DNA of 64,000 nucleotides from Thermoleophilaceae bacterium. Lineage in GTDB: Bacteria; Actinomycetota; Thermoleophilia; Solirubrobacterales; Thermoleophilaceae. This document shows, one piece after another, positions 1,919 through 19,080 of this stretch. The position numbers and the translations under genes are program-made. Position 1 is the stretch's first letter. The number at the start of each line of letters is the position of its first letter. The stretch covers positions 25,400 to 89,399 of the forward strand of contig JAXDIL010000118.1 in assembly GCA_034664005.1 (NCBI GenBank), read 5' to 3'. Under the pieces are notes generated by a model, which had not been told where the DNA came from, did no database searches, and was given only the letters and a program-made list of their open reading frames with translations.

Positions 1919-1991
1919 GGGGCTATAGCTCAGTTGGGAGAGCGCCTGGATCGCACCCAGGAGGCCGCCGGTTCGAGTCCGGCTAGCTCCA
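1919..1991 (+). tRNA. tRNA-Ala (anticodon CGC)
   Basis: 73-nt cloverleaf folded by hand. Acceptor GGGGCTA/TAGCTCC with the G3:U70 alanine identity pair. D arm GCTC-AGTTGGGA-GAGC. Anticodon arm CCTGG-ATCGCAC-CCAGG with CGC at 34-36. T arm GCCGG-TTCGAGT-CCGGC. Discriminator A; CCA not encoded. Confidence 0.95.
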
Positions 1992-2167: not shown

Positions 2168-2926
2168 ATGAACCAGAAGCAGCGTGCACGTGCAGAGGCG
2201 TTGATGGAACTGGTGACGTCCCGGCTTCCCGCTGAGTTTGACGTGACCGCGGACCACGACGCCTGGCCATTCTTCGGCTACGCGCTCTTGAGTCGAACGA
2301 CGGGCACGCTCGACTCGGTGTTTCGTCTCCAGCCAACCGAGCGCGGCTCCGACGCGATGACGCTCGTGCGCAGCCTCTACGAGCACATAGTGCACTTCGC
2401 GTGGCTCTCCGCCGACCCGTCGGCCGAACGCATCGGTCAGTGGCGGAAGCATGACCTGACCGAGCGGCTCAAGGCCGACAACGACACACAGTCCGTCGGC
2501 GTCGAGCTCTTCACCCCGGCGCAGCGGCAGAACTTCGAGGCGCAGCGAGATGCACTACCGGGCGCGAACTCGCTCGTGCTCGCGAACCTCGCCGGCGAGG
2601 CCGACGACTACTGGAACGGCAAAGTCGAGGGCCTGCAGTCTCGGCACCAACCGCGCTCGTTTCGGGGGCTCTACGCGACGGCGTACCGGTTCCAAAGCGG
2701 CCTCGCCCATCCTGGCGAGCGCAGCCTCCACCCGGTCGTGCAGGACGTGACCGCAAGACGCAAGCTGGTGAAGGTGGAGGACTCATTCGAAGGCAATGGC
2801 CCGTACGGCATGGCTACGACCGTCTACGCGCTCGGCCTGCTCGTAGCTGAACAGTCGCTCGGCTGGCCGACCAACGCCGAGGTCAACGCCGTCTTCCAAC
2901 GCGGTCGGGGGCTTATCCAGTCCTGA
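2168..2926 (+). CDS. Hypothetical helical protein (weak resemblance to DUF5677-type proteins)
   Basis: 252-aa ORF with coding-like composition. The stretch LVRSLYEHIVHFAWLSADP recalls DUF5677-type helical proteins, from memory only. It is the first gene after the tRNA. Confidence 0.6.
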   Translation: MNQKQRARAEALMELVTSRLPAEFDVTADHDAWPFFGYALLSRTTGTLDSVFRLQPTERGSDAMTLVRSLYEHIVHFAWLSADPSAERIGQWRKHDLTERLKADNDTQSVGVELFTPAQRQNFEAQRDALPGANSLVLANLAGEADDYWNGKVEGLQSRHQPRSFRGLYATAYRFQSGLAHPGERSLHPVVQDVTARRKLVKVEDSFEGNGPYGMATTVYALGLLVAEQSLGWPTNAEVNAVFQRGRGLIQS

Positions 2927-3408
2927 AAGTGGCGGTTCGCCTCCAACCGCGATTCGTTGCCATCGTCCCAGGGCTCCCAGTCCTGCTCCTGCCTGGGCTG
3001 CATCAAGGCCGTGCGCTCGTTGATGGCAACGAACGCCTCCGCGAGCTTGACGTTCGCGAGTGGCGTGGCGACTAGCCACGGTCCCTTCTCTGCGGCGAGC
3101 GCTTTGAGACGGTCGACCAGCTGCTCAAAGCCCAGGTCGTCCTCGCCCGCATCCACCAGCTGTTGGACGATGTCGCGCATCAGCATGCGCTCGCTCGCGA
3201 ACAATCTGAAGACCTGCAGATGATGGCGTCGGACAGCGCTTGCGCACTGACGAATGAGAATCCAGTCGGGTTCTGAGAAGAAGTCGGTCAGCGGTCGAAA
3301 TGCACGGGAGACCTCCCCGGGCTCCAGTGGCTCGTTCTGCCTCGCGTTTGCGCGCCGGACAACCGCCTGAAGGGCCCCTAGGTCGAACGTGGGCGTTCCG
3401 GCGCTCAT
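2824..3408 (-). CDS. Hypothetical protein, possibly 3'-truncated or decayed
   Basis: 194-aa ORF. The first ~160 residues look coding. The last ~33 residues lie inside the convergent gene 2168-2926 (103-bp overlap) and look like out-of-frame read-through. Confidence 0.45.
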   Translation of the reverse strand: MSAGTPTFDLGALQAVVRRANARQNEPLEPGEVSRAFRPLTDFFSEPDWILIRQCASAVRRHHLQVFRLFASERMLMRDIVQQLVDAGEDDLGFEQLVDRLKALAAEKGPWLVATPLANVKLAEAFVAINERTALMQPRQEQDWEPWDDGNESRLEANRHFQDWISPRPRWKTALTSALVGQPSDCSATSRPSA

Positions 3409-3479: not shown

Positions 3480-4475
3480 ATGCTGATGCCAGAGCAAGTA
3501 CGGCACATCCCTTGGTGGCGATGGCTGCTGGGAGCAGTGACCATCGCCGCTGTTGTCTACGTCGGTGCCGCCGAGAACGTGGCGACGGCCATCGTCGCCG
3601 CCATCGGTATCGCCGCAGCTGTCTTCACCGTCTGGAATCCGTTCGCTGCTCGGCCGCATCCGACCCTCAGCTTGGAACCCGTCGGCAAAGGCGAGACGAC
3701 GCACGTCAGCGTCGGGTCGGCGGTGCGTCCCGTTGACGTCGACGCGGTTGTTGAGGACGCGCGCTCGATAGCCCTCGTGTCGCGCCCGTCGGCCCTGATG
3801 TTCACGATGTTGAAGTACGCCAAGCCCACCGCGGAAGACCACGCGAAGTACGGGGCTGACGTAGAGACGTACGCCGAGGAGGTGCGGTCCTGGGCGGAAG
3901 CCGCTGAGGAGTGGCTCCGCGCTCAGGACTCGGTTCTCCACGCCCGTGTCATCCAGCGCAACTCAAGTTCCGTCGACGCCGAGGACGCCGGCATCTACGT
4001 TCTCCTTCCGCCGGGAACCGAGGAGCTCTCAGACGTCCCTGAGCCGCCTACGCCTCCTGACCGTCCCGCCTTCCCGTTGAGGAAGTCCGCGCTCTCTATG
4101 GCTATGGACCCGTCGCCGCTGAGCGGATATCACTGGCCGCGGGTGAGCCCAGTGGGAATCACGGAGTTCGAGCCGGTTTCGCTCTGGGACCCTGACTACG
4201 AACGGATGCCCGACGGACGCCTGCGCGTCTCCTATCAGCGTCAGCCCGTACGCCACGGCGAAATCGAGCCCACCGGCCGCCCGTTCATGGTCCGGCTTCC
4301 GCCCGGCGAGTGCGAAGCCCGCTGGGAGGTGCATGCCCGAAACCTCTCGCACCATGCATCGGGCAGTTGGACCGTCTCCTGCCAACCCGACTACTCGGGC
4401 GAGGCCATCACGACCTTGGCCGACCTCGAAGCCGCACTCGGCATTGAAGGCGACGACCCCGCCGAGGATGAGTAG
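3480..4475 (+). CDS. Membrane-anchored hypothetical protein (two predicted N-terminal TM helices)
   Basis: 331-aa ORF. The N-terminus WWRWLLGAVTIAAVVYVGAAENVATAIVAAIGIAAAVFTVW is hydrophobic, followed by a ~260-aa soluble domain with no motif I recognise and an acidic C-terminus. Confidence 0.7.
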   Translation: MLMPEQVRHIPWWRWLLGAVTIAAVVYVGAAENVATAIVAAIGIAAAVFTVWNPFAARPHPTLSLEPVGKGETTHVSVGSAVRPVDVDAVVEDARSIALVSRPSALMFTMLKYAKPTAEDHAKYGADVETYAEEVRSWAEAAEEWLRAQDSVLHARVIQRNSSSVDAEDAGIYVLLPPGTEELSDVPEPPTPPDRPAFPLRKSALSMAMDPSPLSGYHWPRVSPVGITEFEPVSLWDPDYERMPDGRLRVSYQRQPVRHGEIEPTGRPFMVRLPPGECEARWEVHARNLSHHASGSWTVSCQPDYSGEAITTLADLEAALGIEGDDPAEDE

Positions 4476-4564
4476 TCAGCGCGGGGCTACGGGGCTGGAG
4501 TCAGGCCCACCCACAGCAGAAACCGGGTACTGGGCGGCAATCTGAGTCCATACTCCGCCTGCAA

Positions 4565-5332
4565 ATGGACAGCACGCCTCTTATCGCCGTCGGCGCCGAC
4601 GCCGCTCCGGCCGGCTGGGCCGCGGCTTGTTTGTACGCCGACGCGCTCACGCCAGGAGAGGCGACTACTTGGGAGACGCGACTTCATCTAGCCGCCACCG
4701 TCGAGGAGTTGGTGGCCATGTGTGGCGACGCCGCTGGGTCGAGGCCTCCGGTGGCCATCGACATCCCCATCGGTTTGCCCGAGACCGTTCGCTACCGGCG
4801 CTGCGACGAACAGGCGCGCGAGCTCCTCGGCGGCCGACGGGATTCGGTGTTCCCACCGCCGGCTCGCTACATGCTCGAAGCCGCCGGCGACTACACCGCC
4901 ATCCGGGAGCTGGTCGCAGCCGAGAAGAAGCGGAACCCAGCAGCTCGCGGTTACAGCGCCCAGGCGGCGGGCATCACCACCAAAGTCAGGGAGGTCGACG
5001 CGTGGGTGTGTGCCCACCCGGAGAGTGAGGCGTGGCTGTTCGAGTGCCATCCCGAGCTCAGCTTCTACGCGCTAAATGACGGCGGGGCCCTGCCGAGCAA
5101 GCACTCGGCTGCTGGGCTAGTTCAGCGATTGGGGCGCATCCGCGAGCTTTTCCCGGATGCCGAGGCTCAACTGGCGGATGGGCCATGGTCGGGCAAGCAG
5201 GCGGCGCCGGCTGACTTTCTCGATGCCTACGGCGCACTCGGCACGGCGCTTGTCTGCGCGCGCCACGACCAAGAAGAGCTCGGCGACGGCGAGCGCGACG
5301 TCCGGGGCGTGCTCATGCGGATGGCGATGTAG
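4565..5332 (+). CDS. DUF429 family protein (predicted RNase H-like fold nuclease)
   Basis: 255 aa. The pattern GADAAPAGW...VAIDIPIGLPE...RRCDEQARELLGGRRDSVFPPPAR...GYSAQAAGITTKVREVD...ECHPELSF...DFLDAY matches the conserved blocks I know for DUF429. Confidence 0.75.
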   Translation: MDSTPLIAVGADAAPAGWAAACLYADALTPGEATTWETRLHLAATVEELVAMCGDAAGSRPPVAIDIPIGLPETVRYRRCDEQARELLGGRRDSVFPPPARYMLEAAGDYTAIRELVAAEKKRNPAARGYSAQAAGITTKVREVDAWVCAHPESEAWLFECHPELSFYALNDGGALPSKHSAAGLVQRLGRIRELFPDAEAQLADGPWSGKQAAPADFLDAYGALGTALVCARHDQEELGDGERDVRGVLMRMAM

Positions 5333-5398
5333 AGGCCCCTCTGGGCCTTGGTGGTCGGGGCGACGGGCTACGCGTGGGTCCGGGACTAACACTCGGTG

Positions 5399-5980
5399 TC
5401 AGGTCCGTACGGCCGCCACCGCTTTGCTCAGCTCGGCCCAGCCCACCGGCCCCCGAGTGTGCCGGTCCAGGAAGCCCATGCCCACGGAGCGCGCCCGGTT
5501 GTCGCGGACCGCGTCGGCGTCGGCGACATAGAAGGCCCACTGGTCGACGTCGAGCGGCGCGTACTCGCTTGGCACCCTGCAGGTGTGGATAGCGAAGACG
5601 AACACGTCCGCCCGCACCTCACGCTCTGTGCCCCAGCCGCGCTTGTCGTCCCAAGAGAGCCCGGTGAGTCCGGTGAAGCGGATGTCGGAGAGCTTGCGCT
5701 GCGCCCAGCTCTGCAGGTACGCCGATGACTTGACCTCGATGCGGGTTCCGTCCGGCGTGAGCACGTCGTAGTTGTCCCACGCCGTCCGTACCGGTTGTTC
5801 GGCCCCGACGGCCTTGGCAACGAGGAACTCCGCGAGCACGCCGCGAACGATGTTGGTGCGGAGGTCGCTGAAGGCGAAGCTCCAGAAATCACGCACTGTC
5901 GTACCGGTCCCGGTGAAGCGCTCGCTGCCGTCGAGCGGGGCGACCTCTGTCGGCTCAAGCCATTCTGGTTCGTCGTCCAC
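5399..5980 (-). CDS. PD-(D/E)xK nuclease-like protein
   Basis: 193 aa. VRDFWSFAFSDLRTNIVRGVLAEFLVAKAV...WDNYDVLTPDGTRIEVKSSAYLQSW contains a D-x(n)-E-x-K core (YD...IEVK) typical of restriction-endonuclease-fold proteins. Confidence 0.7.
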   Translation of the reverse strand: MDDEPEWLEPTEVAPLDGSERFTGTGTTVRDFWSFAFSDLRTNIVRGVLAEFLVAKAVGAEQPVRTAWDNYDVLTPDGTRIEVKSSAYLQSWAQRKLSDIRFTGLTGLSWDDKRGWGTEREVRADVFVFAIHTCRVPSEYAPLDVDQWAFYVADADAVRDNRARSVGMGFLDRHTRGPVGWAELSKAVAAVRT

Positions 5981-6052: not shown

Positions 6053-7285
6053 TCACTCCTTGCCCGGGGTGTGGATGAAGAAGGTGTTCAGGTCGGCGTG
6101 ACGACGCTCGTCACCGGGCCAGCTGACGGTTGCCCGAAGCTCAGTCTCGGCAGCGGGGTCTTGCCACTCGACGAACTGCTCGTGAGCTTCGAGCGTCTCC
6201 CGCGCCTTCTCAATGATTTCCGTGAGCTCGCGCTGGCGGACGAACATCACGATGGCGAGTTTGGTGTCGCGCCAAGCCGTGTAGCGAAAGAGCTGGTCAA
6301 TCGTCTCCGAGAACCCCTTGGGTCCGCTCCAGAACTTGCACTCGCCAATGAAGAGGCTGCTGCCCTCATAGGAGACGAGGATGTCGGTCTTGCCCTGAGC
6401 GTTGAACGCCTCGGCGGTGGTATGGCCGCGATAGTGGGTGTGTAGGGCCGCGACCAGAACCTGTCGCCGGTCCTCCTCGCCCATTCCTTCGTAGGTGGCG
6501 GGGCTCGACTCCATCTTTTCGCCGGTTGCGCGGATGACCCCGAGGATGTGGTCGAAGACTTCCTTCGCGAGCACGGGTTCCAGCTGGACCGGTTCCTCTT
6601 CGCGCCTGGGCAGCTCGGGCGCCGGCAGTCGCAAGAGCGCCTCGGCGATATAGGTCTTCTCCTGCTGGTCTGGCGGTCCGACTGGCAAGCCCGTGTCGGC
6701 GATGTGCTGCTGATGGCGCTCGACGTGGTCGCGGCGGACACGGATGGCTTGCAGGGCCGTGTTCTTCAGGTCCGCGTTGTGTTGGTCTATGTCGTTGCGC
6801 GACCAGGTGAGGTGTTGCTCGACCTTGCTGGCGAGCTGCTGAGCGTGCGCCGTGATGTTGACCGGCGAGTCTTGGGGGTACTCGATGACGTCGGTGAGCT
6901 CGTGCTCGTGCACCGCCGCCCGCGGTGGGTTCATGCTGAACTGGCTCGCCTGCAGATTGAAGACGCCGTGGTCGCCGTCGAAGGGGATGTGGATGACGAC
7001 GCGGTAGCCGGGGATTAGCGCGCGTCGACCTGGAATCACGGCCCGCCTGAAATCGTGAGAAACGTCGACCTCGACCTGTGCCGGCTCGTCCTGCCACATC
7101 TTCTCCGGACGCAGGACCGGAGGCTCCACGCGGTATCGCTCGGCAAGGGCGTCCGCCCAGGCATCCTCGTCCGCTTGAAGGACGTGCTCGTCCGGAGTCT
7201 TCTGGACATCCTGGGACAAGCGCGCCTTGATGTTCTGAAGCGTGCCGCGCAGGTCGCCCCCGTAGAAGAGCAGGTCGCCGACCAT
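6053..7285 (-). CDS. Hypothetical protein with C-terminal PD-(D/E)xK nuclease-like domain
   Basis: 410 aa. The C-terminal GKTDILVSYEGSSLFIGECKFWSGPKGF...RDTKLAIVMFV has a D...E-C-K motif. The N-terminal ~280 aa has no motif I recognise. Same strand as hsdR, 162 bp downstream of it. Confidence 0.75.
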   Translation of the reverse strand: MVGDLLFYGGDLRGTLQNIKARLSQDVQKTPDEHVLQADEDAWADALAERYRVEPPVLRPEKMWQDEPAQVEVDVSHDFRRAVIPGRRALIPGYRVVIHIPFDGDHGVFNLQASQFSMNPPRAAVHEHELTDVIEYPQDSPVNITAHAQQLASKVEQHLTWSRNDIDQHNADLKNTALQAIRVRRDHVERHQQHIADTGLPVGPPDQQEKTYIAEALLRLPAPELPRREEEPVQLEPVLAKEVFDHILGVIRATGEKMESSPATYEGMGEEDRRQVLVAALHTHYRGHTTAEAFNAQGKTDILVSYEGSSLFIGECKFWSGPKGFSETIDQLFRYTAWRDTKLAIVMFVRQRELTEIIEKARETLEAHEQFVEWQDPAAETELRATVSWPGDERRHADLNTFFIHTPGKE

Positions 7286-7447: not shown

Positions 7448-10400
7448 CTACCAGGCGTCTATCTCGACCTCGGGCCAGCGTCGATACAGCGTCAGTGCCT
7501 GTTCGAGGATGAGGTCGGTGTAGATGTCAAGGGGCCGGCCTCCGCCGCCGTCGACTCCGCTGGCGGGTGGGTCCGGAAGGTCCCTGCGGTGTCGGCGCAG
7601 GAGACGCTTGATGCGCTTGCGCACTGCCGCCTCAGTGGACTCGTCTGAAGTCCAGTCGACGGTCAGGTCGCTGCGAATCCCCTGGACGAGCTCGCGCGCG
7701 ATGGTCACGAGCTTCGGGTCCGCAGTCCAGTTCTCGGGATTGCCGGCGAGCGCGTCGTAGAACGCCGCCTCTTCTTCCGTGAGTCCCAGTTCCTCGTGAC
7801 GATGGCGGGCCTCGCGAAGTTGTTTGGCAATCTCGACCAGCCGGGCCACGATTTCTGCGGAAGTGATGGTCCGGTTGTCGTAAGCCTGAAGCAGCTCGTC
7901 GATGCGGTCGGAGAAGAGCTTTGCCTGCAGGTGGTTCGACCGCAGCCGGACGCGAACCTCCTCGTCGAGGAGCCGTTTGATGAGGTTGACCGCGAGGTTC
8001 GGGCGTTCGCTGACCTTCTTCGTCACTTCGTCGAGGAACTCATCGGAGAGCACTGAGACCTCTGGGCGTTCCTTGCCGGCGAGCTTGAGCACGTCGACGA
8101 CCTCGCCGGCGGCGAGCCCTGTAGAGATGAACTGCTTGACCACCTGCTCGGCCTCGGGGCTTGCTTGGTCGGTCGGGGCCGCGTACGCGCGGACCTCCCG
8201 GGCAACCGCGCCGAAGAACTCGGCGTCGGTGGCCACCTCCACTGCTTCAGATGTGGTCCCGGCCAGCGCGAACCAGCGGCTGAAGAGCGTGTACTGCCTG
8301 AGGAACTCGGTGGTCGAGTCCTGGTCTTCGAGTAATAGGTCCGAGGCTTCCTCGATGAGTTCGGTGACTTCAGTCGCCGGCTTCGTCTCCCAGCCCGCGT
8401 ACTCGACGCCGTGGAGCATCGCCGCAACCACCTCATGCTTCTCGCGCATGTGCTTGACGGCAACCGCCAGCGGGACCGCGACGTCGTCGACATCTTGCTT
8501 GGCATAGGCGGTCAGGGAGGCACGCAGGTCCTCACCGATGCCGATGTAGTCGACGACGAGGCCTCCCGGCTTGTCACGGAAGACGCGGTTGACTCGGGCA
8601 ATGGCCTGCAGCAGACCGTGGTCCTTCATCGGCTTGTCGACGTAGAGGGTGTGCATAACCGGGGCATCGAAGCCGGTTAGCCACATGTCGCGAACGACAA
8701 CGATTCGCAAGGCTGAATCCGGCTGCTTGTAGAGCTCTTCGAGCTCCTCGCGCTGGTGGCGGGTGCGGCGGAAAGCCGAGATTTCCGGGTCGTCGGTGGC
8801 GGTGGCGGAGATGACCGCCGTGACCGCATCCTCACCTAAGTGGGCCTTGAGCCGTTTGACGAGGTCGACGCAGATGCGCTGGCTGTAGCCGACGACCATG
8901 GCCTTGCCCTCTTGGACCTTGCAGCGCTCGGTGTAATGCTCGGCGATGTCCTTGGCGACGACATCGAGTCGCTCGTCCGTCCCGACGAGTTTCTCCAAGC
9001 GCGCCCACGCGGTCTGAAGCTTGCGGGCGGCGCCTTCGTCCTCTTCGGACAGCACCTCCTCGGCCTCGCGAAGCAGCTCCTCGTCCTTGACATCGAGCGG
9101 GACCACCCGGCTCTCGTAGAAGATGGGCACGACCGCCCCGTCAGCCTCGGCGTCAGAAATGCGGTAGACGGACACGTAATCGCCGAAGGTCAGACGGGTG
9201 TTGCGGTCACCCGCCTCGATGGGCGTCCCCGTGAACCCGATGCGGATGGCGTTCGGGAGCGAGCGCGTGACGTTGCGGGCCAGGTCTCCGTACTGAGTTC
9301 GGTGCGCTTCGTCGGCCATGACGACGATGTTCGCGCGCTCGGATAGGACGGGCATCTGGCTGCGCTCACGGCCGGGGTCGAACTTCTGGATGGTCGTAAA
9401 GACGATGTCACCTGGCGGCCGTCGCAGGAGCTCGTGGAGCGACTCCTCCTTCCGGCCCTCGGTCGGGCCTTTGGGCGGCTCGATACGTTCCGCGCGCTTG
9501 ACCGCTGCGGCGAGGTGTTTCTGGCGCCGGAAGGTCTTGTACAGCTGGTCGTCGAGCTGCTCACGGTCGGTGAGGGCGACAACGGTCGGGGACTCGAAGC
9601 GAGGGTCCTTGCGGAGCTTCGAGGTGTAGAAGGCCATCAGGTAGCTCTTGCCTGAACCCTGGGTGTGCCAAATGACGCCGGCGCGGCCGTCGCCGTTCAT
9701 CGCCGCCCAGGTGGCCTCCAGCGCTTTCTCGACCGCCTGGACCTGGTGGTACTTGGCCATCACCTTCCAGGTCTTGGCGCCATCGGTCTCGAACATCACG
9801 TAGTTGGCGATGAGGTCGAGGAATCGCGCGGGCGTGTAGACGCCTTGAAGCATGACTTTCAGCCCCGTCTGCTTTTTCTCGCCGGGCTGCGGGTCCATGG
9901 TCTTCCACTCGGCGAAGTGCTCCGCCGGCGTTGTCACAGTTCCGACACGGGCTTCGCGGCGGTCGGTGACGGCGATGACCTCGATGAAGCGATAGAGGTA
10001 CGGGATGTCCTGCCAGTAGCCGGCGACCTGGTTGATGACCGCTTGCCCGCCCTTGTCGCCGGGCGCCTTGGCTTCGATTTGGCCCAAGGGGATGCCGTTG
10101 ACAAACAAGAGAATGTCGGGCCGACGCTTCTTCTCCGTTGGACCCGAACCCTGCTCGACGCGGAACTGGTTGACGGCTAGGAACTCGTTGTTGGTGGGGT
10201 CGCCGAAGTCGACGAGCTTCGCTCGGCCGGACTGCTCTTCACCGGAGGAGTCGGTCCAGGTGACGGGCACGCCGAGGACGAGAAACTCGTGAAACGCGTA
10301 ATGGTCGTCGATGAGGACCACAGACGTCGACTCGCGGACGTCTGTGATGACGGCGTCGACCGCCTCATCGGGTAGGTGCGGGTTGAGATGGGCAATGGCG

Positions 10401-10570
10401 TTCCTGAGCCGACGAACAAGTAGGACCTCCCGGTAGTCACCGCGCTCGCTCGCAGGCGCGGAGGGCGCGAGCTTGTGTCCGGGTGCGTGCTCCCAGCCCA
10501 GCTCCTCAAGCCATGCGAGCGCCGGCTGCTCCACCAGCGCGTCTTCGCCGAGCTTGAGGCTGGAGCTCAT
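7448..10570 (-). CDS. hsdR: Type I restriction enzyme, R subunit (helicase/endonuclease)
   Basis: 1040 aa. HsdR-type N-terminus (EDALVEQPALAWLEELGWEH), SF2 helicase motifs (WHTQGSGKS, MADEAHRTQYG, FTGTP) and a long helical C-terminal region. Lies 4 nt downstream of hsdS. Confidence 0.95.
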   Translation of the reverse strand: MSSSLKLGEDALVEQPALAWLEELGWEHAPGHKLAPSAPASERGDYREVLLVRRLRNAIAHLNPHLPDEAVDAVITDVRESTSVVLIDDHYAFHEFLVLGVPVTWTDSSGEEQSGRAKLVDFGDPTNNEFLAVNQFRVEQGSGPTEKKRRPDILLFVNGIPLGQIEAKAPGDKGGQAVINQVAGYWQDIPYLYRFIEVIAVTDRREARVGTVTTPAEHFAEWKTMDPQPGEKKQTGLKVMLQGVYTPARFLDLIANYVMFETDGAKTWKVMAKYHQVQAVEKALEATWAAMNGDGRAGVIWHTQGSGKSYLMAFYTSKLRKDPRFESPTVVALTDREQLDDQLYKTFRRQKHLAAAVKRAERIEPPKGPTEGRKEESLHELLRRPPGDIVFTTIQKFDPGRERSQMPVLSERANIVVMADEAHRTQYGDLARNVTRSLPNAIRIGFTGTPIEAGDRNTRLTFGDYVSVYRISDAEADGAVVPIFYESRVVPLDVKDEELLREAEEVLSEEDEGAARKLQTAWARLEKLVGTDERLDVVAKDIAEHYTERCKVQEGKAMVVGYSQRICVDLVKRLKAHLGEDAVTAVISATATDDPEISAFRRTRHQREELEELYKQPDSALRIVVVRDMWLTGFDAPVMHTLYVDKPMKDHGLLQAIARVNRVFRDKPGGLVVDYIGIGEDLRASLTAYAKQDVDDVAVPLAVAVKHMREKHEVVAAMLHGVEYAGWETKPATEVTELIEEASDLLLEDQDSTTEFLRQYTLFSRWFALAGTTSEAVEVATDAEFFGAVAREVRAYAAPTDQASPEAEQVVKQFISTGLAAGEVVDVLKLAGKERPEVSVLSDEFLDEVTKKVSERPNLAVNLIKRLLDEEVRVRLRSNHLQAKLFSDRIDELLQAYDNRTITSAEIVARLVEIAKQLREARHRHEELGLTEEEAAFYDALAGNPENWTADPKLVTIARELVQGIRSDLTVDWTSDESTEAAVRKRIKRLLRRHRRDLPDPPASGVDGGGGRPLDIYTDLILEQALTLYRRWPEVEIDAW

Positions 10571-10574
10571 CCGC

Positions 10575-11774
10575 CTACGCCACTAAGGCGCCGTCTGTAT
10601 TGATGGGGAGAGGCAGGCTAAGTCTCCCGGCGAACACCTCGCGCAATGTGAGGTCGCGTAGCTTTTCTAGAACGACGTTTTGTTTCCGTGCATGGTCTTC
10701 TAGTTCGAGCAGAGGTTGCCCAGAGTCAATCCACCGCCCAAGCGCCTCTTCTTCTGGACGCGGCACCGGGGCTGACAGCAAGTCGCCGGGTCTGATGCGC
10801 TGATGAGAGCCGGTCGTTCCCGCGACGTGCGCGAGAACGAACGTGCGGAACGTCTGGTCAAAACGGACTGCTGCGTGGAGGTAGCTGAAGGGGAAGGGCT
10901 TCCTCGGTTGCACCGCGAGAAACTCGGTTGAGCAGACCGCACGGGTATCGGCCTGCGGAGCGGCGGCCCAAACGCGCCACTGCCGACCGGGATTCAGCTT
11001 GGACACGAGCACCGCTCGGCCGTCGAGAAGCGTCTTGCCGGACTTGATGGTCGACCCGAGAACGCGCTCAGGAAGCCGTCCGTTATCGAAGGCAGGGATG
11101 CTGTAATGGTCGAACTCGTCGGTCGGCGCGCGGAGGGGTTGAACCGAGGTTCGGATTTGCGTCGCCACGTCGTCTAGACGCATCTCAGTGGCGCCCTCGA
11201 TGACTTCGGCATAGAGAAGGCGGGCAAGCGCGGCGAGGTTGTCGGCCATTCTCAGGTTGAGCTCTGCATGAGCATCCAAAGCACCAAGCGACTCAGAGAT
11301 GGAGCGCTGCTCCCCGGGGTCGTGGAGCAGCGGAACCTGCAGTGCTCGGATATCCGACATGTTCAGGTGCGCCACGGTTGAGCCTTCGGAGCGGCTGGTC
11401 ATTGCGTGCTGTAGCTGCGGCGAAAGCAGCAGGTAGAGCAAATACCGAGGTTCAACGCGTGAAGGGTCAGGCCGAAGTAAGACCGTCCGCTGCCCAAGAC
11501 AGATGCGGGCATCGTCCGGGACGATGCCGACGGCTCCAACCGGTGCTTCGCGGGCCAGAACGAGGTCTCCCGTACGCGGCTCCATTCGCTGGCTCCACGT
11601 CCTCCACGTCCCTTCGCTGACTCGCTTGGCTTGGTGAAGTAGCAATCTCCCAGCGCGAATGTCCCGGGTTCCCGGCGCGTAGTACTCGCCGGTGGGGTCA
11701 GCGGGGGCAGTTTTGTGCTCGCAATCGATGATGGCCTCGCACAGGTCATCGAGGCGAGCGTGCGGCGCAGTCAC
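10575..11774 (-). CDS. hsdS: Type I restriction-modification specificity subunit
   Basis: 399 aa with two target-recognition-domain halves separated by helical spacers. Its GTG start overlaps the hsdM stop (GTGA at 11774-11771). It sits between hsdM and hsdR. Confidence 0.9.
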   Translation of the reverse strand: MTAPHARLDDLCEAIIDCEHKTAPADPTGEYYAPGTRDIRAGRLLLHQAKRVSEGTWRTWSQRMEPRTGDLVLAREAPVGAVGIVPDDARICLGQRTVLLRPDPSRVEPRYLLYLLLSPQLQHAMTSRSEGSTVAHLNMSDIRALQVPLLHDPGEQRSISESLGALDAHAELNLRMADNLAALARLLYAEVIEGATEMRLDDVATQIRTSVQPLRAPTDEFDHYSIPAFDNGRLPERVLGSTIKSGKTLLDGRAVLVSKLNPGRQWRVWAAAPQADTRAVCSTEFLAVQPRKPFPFSYLHAAVRFDQTFRTFVLAHVAGTTGSHQRIRPGDLLSAPVPRPEEEALGRWIDSGQPLLELEDHARKQNVVLEKLRDLTLREVFAGRLSLPLPINTDGALVA

Positions 11775-13363
11775 CTGGTGGTGACTCCGAAGCGCTCTGC
11801 AATCAAGTCGCGGAGTTCTTCCGCCTTCTCGAACTGGTGAGCGAGTTCCGTCTGTAGAGCAGCGATGCGCTCGCCCGCCGGTCCTGCTCCGTCATCGCTC
11901 CAGGCGGCTCCCACGTATCGACCCGGAGTCAACGCAAACTTGTGGGCCTCAATCTCATTCAAGGTCGCGGACCTGCAGAACCCTTCTTCGTCCGCGAAGT
12001 CGCTGCCGTTCCGCCACTCGTGGTACTTGCTAGCGATGCGCCCGATGCCCGCCTCAGTCAACTCGACCTGCGTGCGGCTGAGCTTCTCGCCCATCGCGCG
12101 GGCGTCGACGAATAGCACTTCGCCTCGGCGGTCCCGTTTGCCCTCACTCGCCTTGTCCCGGTCTAGGAACCATAGGCACACAGGGATGCCGGTCGTGTAG
12201 AAGAGCTGGGCAGGGCAGGCGACGACGCAGTCGAGAAGGTCATCCCGGACGATGGCTTCGCGGATGGCGCCTTCTCCCCCAGAGTTGGACGTCAAGGAGC
12301 CGTTCGCCATCACGAAGCCGGCACGTCCGTCCGGGGCCAGGTGGGCGATGAAGTGCTGAATCCATGCGTAGTTGGCATTCCCGTCCGGCGGCAACCCGTA
12401 CTTCCAGCGGGAGTCCTTTGACACGCGGTCGACGCCCCATGCCTTTTGGTTGAACGGCGGATTGGCAAGTACGAAGTCCGCGCGCAAGCTCTGGAACTGG
12501 TCGTCGAGCAGGGACCCGCCTTCGGTGTACCTGAGGTCGCCGGACAGCCCGTGAATAGCGAGGTTCATTCGGCCGATGCGCCAGGTGGCCTGGTTCTTTT
12601 CCTGCCCGTAGATGCGGATATCGCGGGGACGTCCGTCATGTGCCTTGACGAACTTCGCGCTCTGCACGAACAAGCCGCCGGACCCGCAGGCGGGGTCAAA
12701 GACCCGGCCCTCATAGGGCTCCAACATTTCGACCAACAGCCGCGTCACCGAAGCCGGCGTGTAGAACTCGCCGCCGCGGTGGCCTTCGTTTCGAGCGAAG
12801 GTCTTGATGAAGTACTCGTAGGTGCGGCCGAGTATGTCCCGCGCGGTTTCCTCGTCGTCGCCAAAGCCAATGCGGTCGATGGTCTTGACCAGCTCACCCA
12901 GTGTTGTCGGGTGCAGCGGCGCGCGGGCGTAGATGCGGGGCAGGACACCGCGTAGCTGGTTCTCGTTTTCGGCCTCGATGACCTTGAGCGCCTTGTCAAC
13001 GCGCTCCCCAATGTCCGGCTGGGTCACCGCGGTCATGAGCTCCGACCAACGAGCGCCTTCGGGGACCCAAAAGACGTTCTCGGAGACGTATTCGTCGCGG
13101 TCTTCGAGAATGTCGTGCCGCTCATCCGCGTTGTCGGTGAAGTACTCATCGTTCTCGGGGTCGCGCGTCCAGGAATCGATTCGAGCCCGCTGGCGCTCGA
13201 ACGAGTCGGAGATGTACTTCAGGAAGATGAGGCCGAGAACGAGATGCTTGTACTCCGCCGACTCCACGGAACCGCGGAGCTGGTCGGCCGCTGAGAAGAG
13301 GTCGCGAGCGAACGGCAGGTCGCCGCCATTCCCGTTCGGCACTGCGTTGGAAGATGTCGTCAC
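11771..13363 (-). CDS. hsdM: Type I restriction-modification N6-adenine DNA methyltransferase subunit
   Basis: 530 aa. HsdM N-terminal block (LRGSVESAEYKHLVLGLIFLKYISD), SAM-binding DPACGSGG and catalytic NPPF (LANPPFNQKAW). Confidence 0.95.
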   Translation of the reverse strand: MTTSSNAVPNGNGGDLPFARDLFSAADQLRGSVESAEYKHLVLGLIFLKYISDSFERQRARIDSWTRDPENDEYFTDNADERHDILEDRDEYVSENVFWVPEGARWSELMTAVTQPDIGERVDKALKVIEAENENQLRGVLPRIYARAPLHPTTLGELVKTIDRIGFGDDEETARDILGRTYEYFIKTFARNEGHRGGEFYTPASVTRLLVEMLEPYEGRVFDPACGSGGLFVQSAKFVKAHDGRPRDIRIYGQEKNQATWRIGRMNLAIHGLSGDLRYTEGGSLLDDQFQSLRADFVLANPPFNQKAWGVDRVSKDSRWKYGLPPDGNANYAWIQHFIAHLAPDGRAGFVMANGSLTSNSGGEGAIREAIVRDDLLDCVVACPAQLFYTTGIPVCLWFLDRDKASEGKRDRRGEVLFVDARAMGEKLSRTQVELTEAGIGRIASKYHEWRNGSDFADEEGFCRSATLNEIEAHKFALTPGRYVGAAWSDDGAGPAGERIAALQTELAHQFEKAEELRDLIAERFGVTTR

Positions 13364-18943: not shown

Positions 18944-19037
18944 ACCCCCGGATAAGTACGTGGTTCCGTGGGCATTCTCCCGCCGAGGCGCGCAAAGTTC
19001 CGCTTGGTAGAGCGGTTTGAGCCCAACGGGCGCTTAT

Positions 19038-19080
19038 ATCGCACCCAGGAGGCCGCCGGTTCGAGTCCGGCTAGCTCCAT
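19038..19080 (+). repeat. Direct repeat of the tRNA-Ala 3' part (att-like junction, copy B)
   Basis: ATCGCACCCAGGAGGCCGCCGGTTCGAGTCCGGCTAGCTCCAT is identical to tRNA positions 32-73 plus the next base. There is no 5' acceptor strand or anticodon-stem partner upstream, so this is not a functional tRNA. Confidence 0.9.

Follow-up and report, generated by a model that had tools for sequence, protein, structure and literature searches.

Does a membrane protein encoded beside a putative nuclease on a bacterial defence island work with it as one system, or are the two merely neighbours? This question is raised by a 64,000-nt stretch of DNA from a Thermoleophilaceae bacterium (NCBI GenBank assembly GCA_034664005.1, contig JAXDIL010000118.1, positions 25,400 to 89,399 of the forward strand), which is called the window below. 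Two open reading frames (ORFs) on its plus strand, 3480-4475 and 4565-5332, encode a 331-aa protein with two N-terminal transmembrane (TM) helices and a 255-aa protein of the DUF429 family. The original prediction for this locus suggested that they form a sensor/effector or abortive-infection pair. Surveys of both families do not support such a dedicated pair. Instead, the locus probably consists of two independent passenger genes lying side by side on a defence island integrated at a tRNA-Ala gene.

Genomic neighbourhoods of the two families

DUF429 relatives were surveyed at 81 loci, which comprise 34 species-representative genomes (mostly metagenome-assembled genomes of Solirubrobacterales and Thermoleophilia), 45 metagenome contigs and 2 class genomes. 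Using tblastn with 13 proteins of the membrane-protein family and hmmsearch with the family profile, not a single member of this family was detected at these loci (0/81). The genes upstream of DUF429 relatives vary in size, strand and hydrophobicity, and the commonest neighbour family recurs in at most 8 loci. According to Pfam, the 110 neighbours within two genes on either side of DUF429 are a housekeeping mix with pilin N_methyl, LtrA, glyoxalase, XseA (exonuclease VII) and PAS/GGDEF proteins. PADLOC matches among them are scattered and generic. This means that the neighbourhood survey suggested in the original prediction yielded neither a conserved upstream TM partner nor an enrichment of defence genes.

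The view from the membrane protein is the same. A tally of the gene that follows it was compiled from contig gene tables and DNA for 12 lineages, which are not fully independent of each other. DUF429 is located downstream in 1/12 lineages, namely in the window only, and is absent from the 15 other membrane-family loci. In the closest relative of the window's membrane protein, the corresponding place is taken by a different nuclease gene, REase-ARP. Transfer of a dedicated pair as a unit was considered and rejected: besides this replacement, blastn homology between the window and locus L004 is limited to the membrane gene, at which it ends, and the two spacers that follow do not align. Furthermore, the loci L010 and L011, whose membrane proteins (P0009 and P0012) are 90% identical, have only this gene and 166 nt upstream in common (blastn, 88% nt identity), while their flanks are unrelated. 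This indicates that the membrane gene moves as a single-gene cassette.

A one-gene variable slot

In the window, the membrane gene (+) is followed after 89 nt by the DUF429 gene (+) and then by a convergent T4 endonuclease IV (EndoIV)-like gene (-). The closest relative, P0004, encodes a membrane protein with 73% identity to that of the window and resides on a contig of 36449 bp. Its gene order is membrane gene (+), 89 nt, REase-ARP gene (+), 32 nt and a gene for a 199-aa T4 EndoIV-like protein (-). A JGI protein of 199 aa assigned to PF26887 (P0138) is 83% identical to the EndoIV-like protein of the window, and its longest contig has exactly the same length, 36449 bp, as that of P0004. Since both flanks are common to the two islands and the middle gene differs, the gene in the slot has been replaced. 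The slot is known from two loci and holds one gene. A literature search under the name REase-ARP found nothing.

No flanking repeats or recombination site were found at the edges of the slot. Neither region 4460-4580 (z = -0.20) nor region 5320-5410 (z = -1.63) contains a significant folded structure. An integron-type attC site or a repeat-bounded cassette around DUF429 was rejected on these z values and the missing repeats, using a simple structure check and not an attC model search. A wider association between the membrane family and T4 EndoIV-like genes was likewise discarded, because the EndoIV-like gene is found with the closest relative only and in 0/15 other loci.

Reality of the two genes

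Both ORFs have a coding-like composition at their codon positions, with a GC content of 0.79 at third positions against 0.50 and 0.54 at second positions, and both have conserved full-length homologues. The automatic gene calls in the assembly are shorter (312 aa for the membrane protein and 204 aa for DUF429). The long forms are correct, since homologues align from the first residues, which include the invariant D12 of DUF429 and a conserved WWRW in front of TM1 of the membrane protein.

One might suspect that one or both ORFs are artefacts, either GC-rich non-coding frames or assembly chimeras, as the source assembly is a metagenome-assembled genome fragmented into 212 contigs with 4.8% contamination. 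In addition to the strong codon-position signatures and the homologues, confident structure models of both proteins (see below) and the recurrence of the order membrane gene/slot/EndoIV on an independent contig speak against this suspicion. It is highly improbable, and the homologues and the synteny effectively refute it.

The 89-nt spacer contains neither a terminator-like nor a promoter-like site, and the two window genes may be co-transcribed across it. Co-transcription would reflect adjacency and would not mark a dedicated system.

The DUF429 protein

The 255-aa protein matches PF04250 with 125.5 bits (cut-off 23; E 3.1e-36). The match extends over residues 10-232 and profile positions 1-201 of 214, and PF04250 is the sole family found. 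Assignment and position, 89 bp downstream of the membrane gene on the same strand, agree with the original prediction, and so do the sequence blocks it had named, which read AIDIPIGLP (64-72), RRCD (78-81) and CHPELSF (161-167). In an alignment of 32 subfamily members, D12, D66, E160, H162, E164, D217 and D220 are invariant. An AlphaFold2 (AF2) model with a pLDDT of 95.3 places D12 inside strand E6-14 and D66 just after strand E63-65. DUF429 has been assigned to clade D of the RNase H-like superfamily together with RuvC, YqgF and the RuvC domain of Cas9, with putative catalytic acidic residues on the first and fourth core strands (Majorek et al., 2014; PMC3985635). The best structural matches in the PDB are RuvC of T. 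thermophilus, RuvC of E. coli and Cas9 (E >= 0.16, TM-score 0.31-0.46), which are not significant alone, and a comparison of the DUF429 family profile with PDB sequences found no relative. As judged by its sequence, the gene product is probably a stand-alone, metal-dependent RuvC/RNase H-like nuclease.

For the DUF429 domain of MSMEG_5849 from M. smegmatis, RNase HII activity has been reported (PMC4429107). This protein, RelZ of Mycolicibacterium smegmatis, is a fusion of DUF429 to a RelA/SpoT synthetase (PMC4429107, PMC3153485). A literature search found no enzymatic activity for DUF429 domains besides that of MSMEG_5849. The statement that DUF429 lacks an established role has to be qualified by this report. 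No RelA/SpoT synthetase domain was found in the window protein, and its alignment revealed no added segment relative to its own subfamily.

DUF429 proteins were described as mostly single-domain with a gene context conserved in close taxa, and their mobility was considered unlikely (Majorek et al., 2014; PMC3985635). The subfamily of the window protein is centred on Solirubrobacterales and Thermoleophilia. Relatives are present in 3/301 class genomes, and a genome-wide profile search found a single DUF429 copy in the source genome. Neither DUF429 nor the membrane protein has a match in PADLOC-DB v2 at E <= 0.01, whereas neighbouring genes do match (PDC-S54).

The membrane protein and its family

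The description of the 331-aa protein as having two N-terminal TM helices and an unassignable soluble part was corroborated. Hydropathy analysis predicts two hydrophobic helices at residues 16-34 and 35-53, and the AF2 model (pLDDT 76.7, pTM 0.61) has helices H12-31 and H34-51. In this model, the soluble part starts with short strands after the hairpin and a long helix (118-151). A first beta-sheet (152-176) and a second one (239-301) are separated by a Pro-rich linker that is disordered (210-232). No match was found in Pfam, NCBIfam, PADLOC and PHROGs, and the family profile found no relative among PDB sequences. Foldseek searches of PDB and BFVD retrieved only generic Ig-like sandwiches (integrin calf/thigh, macroglobulin and YcnI-type) with TM-scores <= 0.30, so that the fold gives no clue to the function. 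Lys and Arg residues are located in the N-terminal tail and in the segment after TM2, and the turn between the helices is short and acidic. By the positive-inside rule, this distribution suggests that the core is cytoplasmic and the hairpin N-in/C-in. The placement fits the fusion of the core to a cytoplasmic PIN domain in relatives. Family motifs visible in the alignment are VWNPF after TM2, PTxADHxKY, NPSSVDAxDAG, PPxRPxFPLRK, RQPVRHGE and WEVHAxNL.

The family is rare: among 5.8 billion proteins, 14 clusters at 90% identity were found, all of them metagenomic, and a profile search of 1.84 billion representatives yielded 276 distant ones at E <= 1e-3. Members are present in 4/401 phylum genomes and 4/401 class genomes, with the source genome counted in both. 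Pattern scans of genome, metagenome and viral contig collections found no match, and tblastn against plasmids and phages found nothing. Two N-terminal TM segments were predicted in 78/145 retrieved representatives. In 13/138 scanned representatives (about 10%), an N-terminal PIN_4 domain replaces the hairpin. An hhalign comparison of the 2TM family with a PIN-fused protein gave a probability of 92.5% and an E of 4.8e-7 over residues 114-303. The acidic residues of the PIN domain are conserved in PIN-fused members, which points to a catalytically intact domain by sequence. PIN-fused members also occur in the genomes G516, G044 and G030, where they are located in low-GC or mobile contexts. In genome G029, the neighbours of a 2TM member are a TrwC relaxase, a TPR-PIN protein, DUF4238 and a divergent Mrr_cat nuclease. 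Every long contig that carries the family has a mobile-element or defence context.

Several individual loci show additional features. A conserved upstream partner of the membrane gene was sought and rejected, as upstream genes differ among loci except for one protein in L007 and L012. This 272-273-aa protein, 52% identical between L007:1376-2197 (-) and L012:798-1616 (+), has no Pfam match and is encoded directly upstream in opposite orientations. The family member at L012:1672-2691 (P0013, 283 aa) fits the family over its first ~220 residues only, which suggests a frameshift or a pseudogene. In the 2.1-kb block that is common to L005:5385-7487 and L007:2275-4363, the downstream Exo_endo_phos/EEP protein is 96% and the membrane protein 85% conserved. 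In L005, the block adjoins genes for a Cap4-type nuclease, an AAA_23 protein and a ParE toxin. The 240-aa partner P0402 at L004:2721-3443 has a weak DUF6308 match (E 0.066) and a match to a PHROG of unknown function. An hhalign comparison revealed no relation to DUF429, a PDB search gave no match, and in its C-terminal half a helix-hairpin-helix-like motif can be seen by eye (WATASVFLHLAYPERYPILDTRA). At L105:2594-5256 (G030), the gene of a PIN-fused member (432 aa) overlaps by 4 nt with that of a 455-aa HerA/TraG-like ATPase (DUF87, TraG-D_C), and the two look like a two-gene operon. A distant relative of the ATPase (21.5% identity, E 2e-8) is encoded two genes upstream of the 2TM member in L003. 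A link between such ATPases and the family was considered too thin, as it is confined to L105 and, distantly, L003.

The island

Both genes are located on a horizontally acquired anti-phage island of 17.1 kb, which is inserted at tRNA-Ala(CGC) between direct repeats of 51 nt (1942-1992 and 19030-19080, 94% identical; Table 1). The GC content between these attachment (att) repeats is 64-65% compared to 70-73% outside. The gene order on the island is DUF5677, membrane gene, DUF429, T4 EndoIV-like, PDC-S54, hsdR, hsdS, hsdM, Hypoth_Ymh/TIGR02391, DUF2188 and RmuC. The EndoIV-like assignment is drawn solely from precomputed PF26887 annotations of homologues. In the same-genus genome G189, the left flank and the tRNA gene are present, followed by a different insert of ~4.3 kb (C120:39031-45399) which is bounded by its own 45-nt perfect att copy. 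The membrane family and DUF429 are both absent from this genome. The G189 insert at the same tRNA-Ala with its own att site identifies this gene as a recurrent integration hotspot. Taken together, the att repeats, the drop in GC content, the restriction and PDC-S54 genes and the different insert in G189 confirm the defence-island setting that the original prediction had proposed.

Table 1. Features of the window at the two genes and on the surrounding island
Feature	Position	Strand	Basis
tRNA-Ala(CGC), integration site (left att within 1942-1992)	1919..1991	+	ARAGORN
331-aa protein of a rare undescribed family, N-terminal membrane hairpin ~12-51	3480..4475	+	hydropathy, AF2, alignment
89-nt spacer between membrane gene and DUF429	4476..4564	+	sequence scan
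DUF429 (PF04250) single-domain RuvC/RNase H-like putative nuclease, 255 aa	4565..5332	+	Pfam match, AF2 model
T4 endonuclease IV-like gene	5399..5980	-	PF26887 via precomputed Pfam of homologues
PDC-S54 candidate	6053-7285	-	PADLOC match
hsdR, type I restriction-modification	7448-10570	-	profile libraries
hsdS, type I restriction-modification	10575-11774	-	profile libraries
hsdM, type I restriction-modification	11771-13363	-	profile libraries
Right att repeat, duplicating the 3' half of the tRNA, at the distal island boundary	19030..19080	+	direct-repeat search

An integrase gene was not seen in the island. Divergent from the membrane gene, a minus-strand ORF of 194 aa (2824-3408) without a family match overlaps the DUF5677 gene. 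A gene caller based on third-position GC content chose an 88-aa plus-strand frame (2957-3223) over this ORF, so that the coding status there is doubtful.

Competing explanations

Two independent passengers on the island are the explanation to which we give reasonable credence. The DUF429 gene fills a one-gene variable slot, while its subfamily normally resides in unrelated chromosomal contexts. The targets of its product might be invading or structured nucleic acids, which it would cut as a defence or accessory nuclease encoded by a single gene. In the membrane protein, a core of a long helix and an Ig-like beta-sandwich (residues ~114-303) is joined to an exchangeable N-terminal module. By analogy, the beta-sandwich core may bind a trigger or a partner, and the N-terminal module may be the output, i.e., membrane perturbation by the hairpin or RNA cleavage by PIN. 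The protein could act alone, as in single-protein abortive-infection systems, whose effector swapping the exchange at the N-terminus may resemble. A further-reaching view is tentative and rather doubtful: The family might be an undescribed anti-phage or inter-element conflict family with a helix and beta-sandwich sensor, a hairpin or PIN output and, in one clade, a downstream slot for different nucleases (DUF429, REase-ARP, EEP) as second effectors.

A number of findings weigh against two independent passengers. The output and sensor roles of the parts of the membrane protein are assigned by analogy alone. In 4/12 lineages, the downstream gene is co-directional at a distance of 39-103 nt. It encodes DUF429 in the window, REase-ARP (PF22558) in P0004, a 240-aa unknown protein in P0005 and Exo_endo_phos/EEP in P0015/P0016, so that three of the four are nuclease superfamilies (DUF429, REase-ARP and EEP). 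In the tree, P0001 (window), P0004 and P0005 form one clade in which each has a different co-directional partner (3/3), and the EEP-bearing pair belongs to a separate clade. L005 and L007 have the membrane gene and the EEP gene in common as one block, with 89% nt identity and unrelated flanks. The spacing of 89 nt is identical in the window and on the P0004 contig despite the different partners, and there is no terminator between the window genes. These features of the downstream genes would fit a modular two-gene system. In it, the membrane-anchored beta-sandwich protein would be the conserved sensor or scaffold, and the nuclease encoded downstream, exchangeable among loci (DUF429, REase-ARP, EEP or another one), would be under its control. 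The nuclease would be held inactive at the membrane until infection, and members that lack a partner would have degenerated or would use the hairpin as output. The fusion of the same core to PIN in relatives also links the core to nucleases. We nevertheless regard such a system as unlikely. The downstream gene is convergent in half of the lineages (6/12) and ambiguous in 2/12, and the 90% identical P0009 and P0012 share a single gene only. The enrichment is weak: If the background rate is assumed to lie between 0.07 and 0.25, the binomial chance of at least 3/12 varies from 0.61 down to 0.047 at the low end, and the independence of the loci is incomplete. At none of the 81 loci are DUF429 relatives accompanied by the membrane-family partner, and the DUF429 protein of the window has no added docking segment. 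Moreover, PIN takes the place of the hairpin and does not accompany it, which agrees with a hairpin that is an output rather than an anchor.

That neither gene serves defence is less probable still. In this case, the mobile element itself would benefit from the membrane protein, for example in its transfer, exclusion or maintenance, and DUF429 would be an RNase H-like enzyme of R-loop processing or repair carried along by chance. Family members do adjoin a relaxase, coupling-protein-like ATPases of type IV secretion systems, integrases and serine recombinases. The RNase HII activity of the mycobacterial DUF429 domain and the housekeeping contexts of DUF429 relatives are in agreement with such a role. 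However, the island in the window has no transfer genes and is full of restriction and defence-type genes, and other family loci hold genes for a Cap4-type nuclease, AAA_23, ParE, Mrr_cat, TPR-PIN and STAND-like proteins. The exchange of a hairpin for PIN is also unexpected of a transfer or exclusion protein.

Conclusions and comparison with known systems

With two passengers as the preferred explanation, a system of 'DUF429 plus membrane sensor' is removed as a tempting but unsupported candidate. The result adds weight to the view that DUF429 nucleases travel on defence islands as free-standing passengers that can be exchanged. The lead that remains is a rare family on mobile elements and defence islands, with no relative in Pfam, PADLOC or the PDB. 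Its protein is small (~330 aa, a single gene) and directly testable, and the choice of 2TM or PIN in its architecture matches the way in which abortive-infection proteins typically swap modules. Should it prove to protect against phage, it would provide a new sensor fold and a testable role for its partners DUF429, REase-ARP and EEP. If the tentative conflict-family view holds, DUF429 would for the first time be shown as a recruited defence effector.

Compared to the Pfam family DUF429 (COG2410/COG4328/COG4923), the window protein is alike in its full-length match, its single domain and its conserved acidic residues. It differs in its location on a mobile island and its absence from close relatives, whereas the family is described as context-conserved. 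With RelZ, it has the DUF429 domain in common, but it is a protein of 255 aa without a synthetase domain, and nothing ties it to alarmone signalling.

In the cargo slots of defence islands, the defence genes between conserved flanks vary from one related element to the next, as exemplified by the hotspots of P2/P4 prophages. The slot in the window likewise has conserved flanks (73% and 83% identity) around one differing gene. Here, the slot contains a single gene, is represented by two loci and has no recombination site or repeat at its edges. Effectors of the cyclic oligonucleotide-based antiphage signalling system (CBASS) and of the pyrimidine cyclase system for antiphage resistance (Pycsar) comprise 2TM, nuclease and other variants. 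The membrane family differs from them, as it has neither a SAVED or cyclic-nucleotide-binding domain nor a cyclase partner nor a PADLOC match, and its conserved module is an Ig-like beta-sandwich. What it shares with CBASS and Pycsar effectors is a conserved C-terminal module joined to either a 2TM hairpin or a PIN nuclease, and the location in mobile and defence loci.

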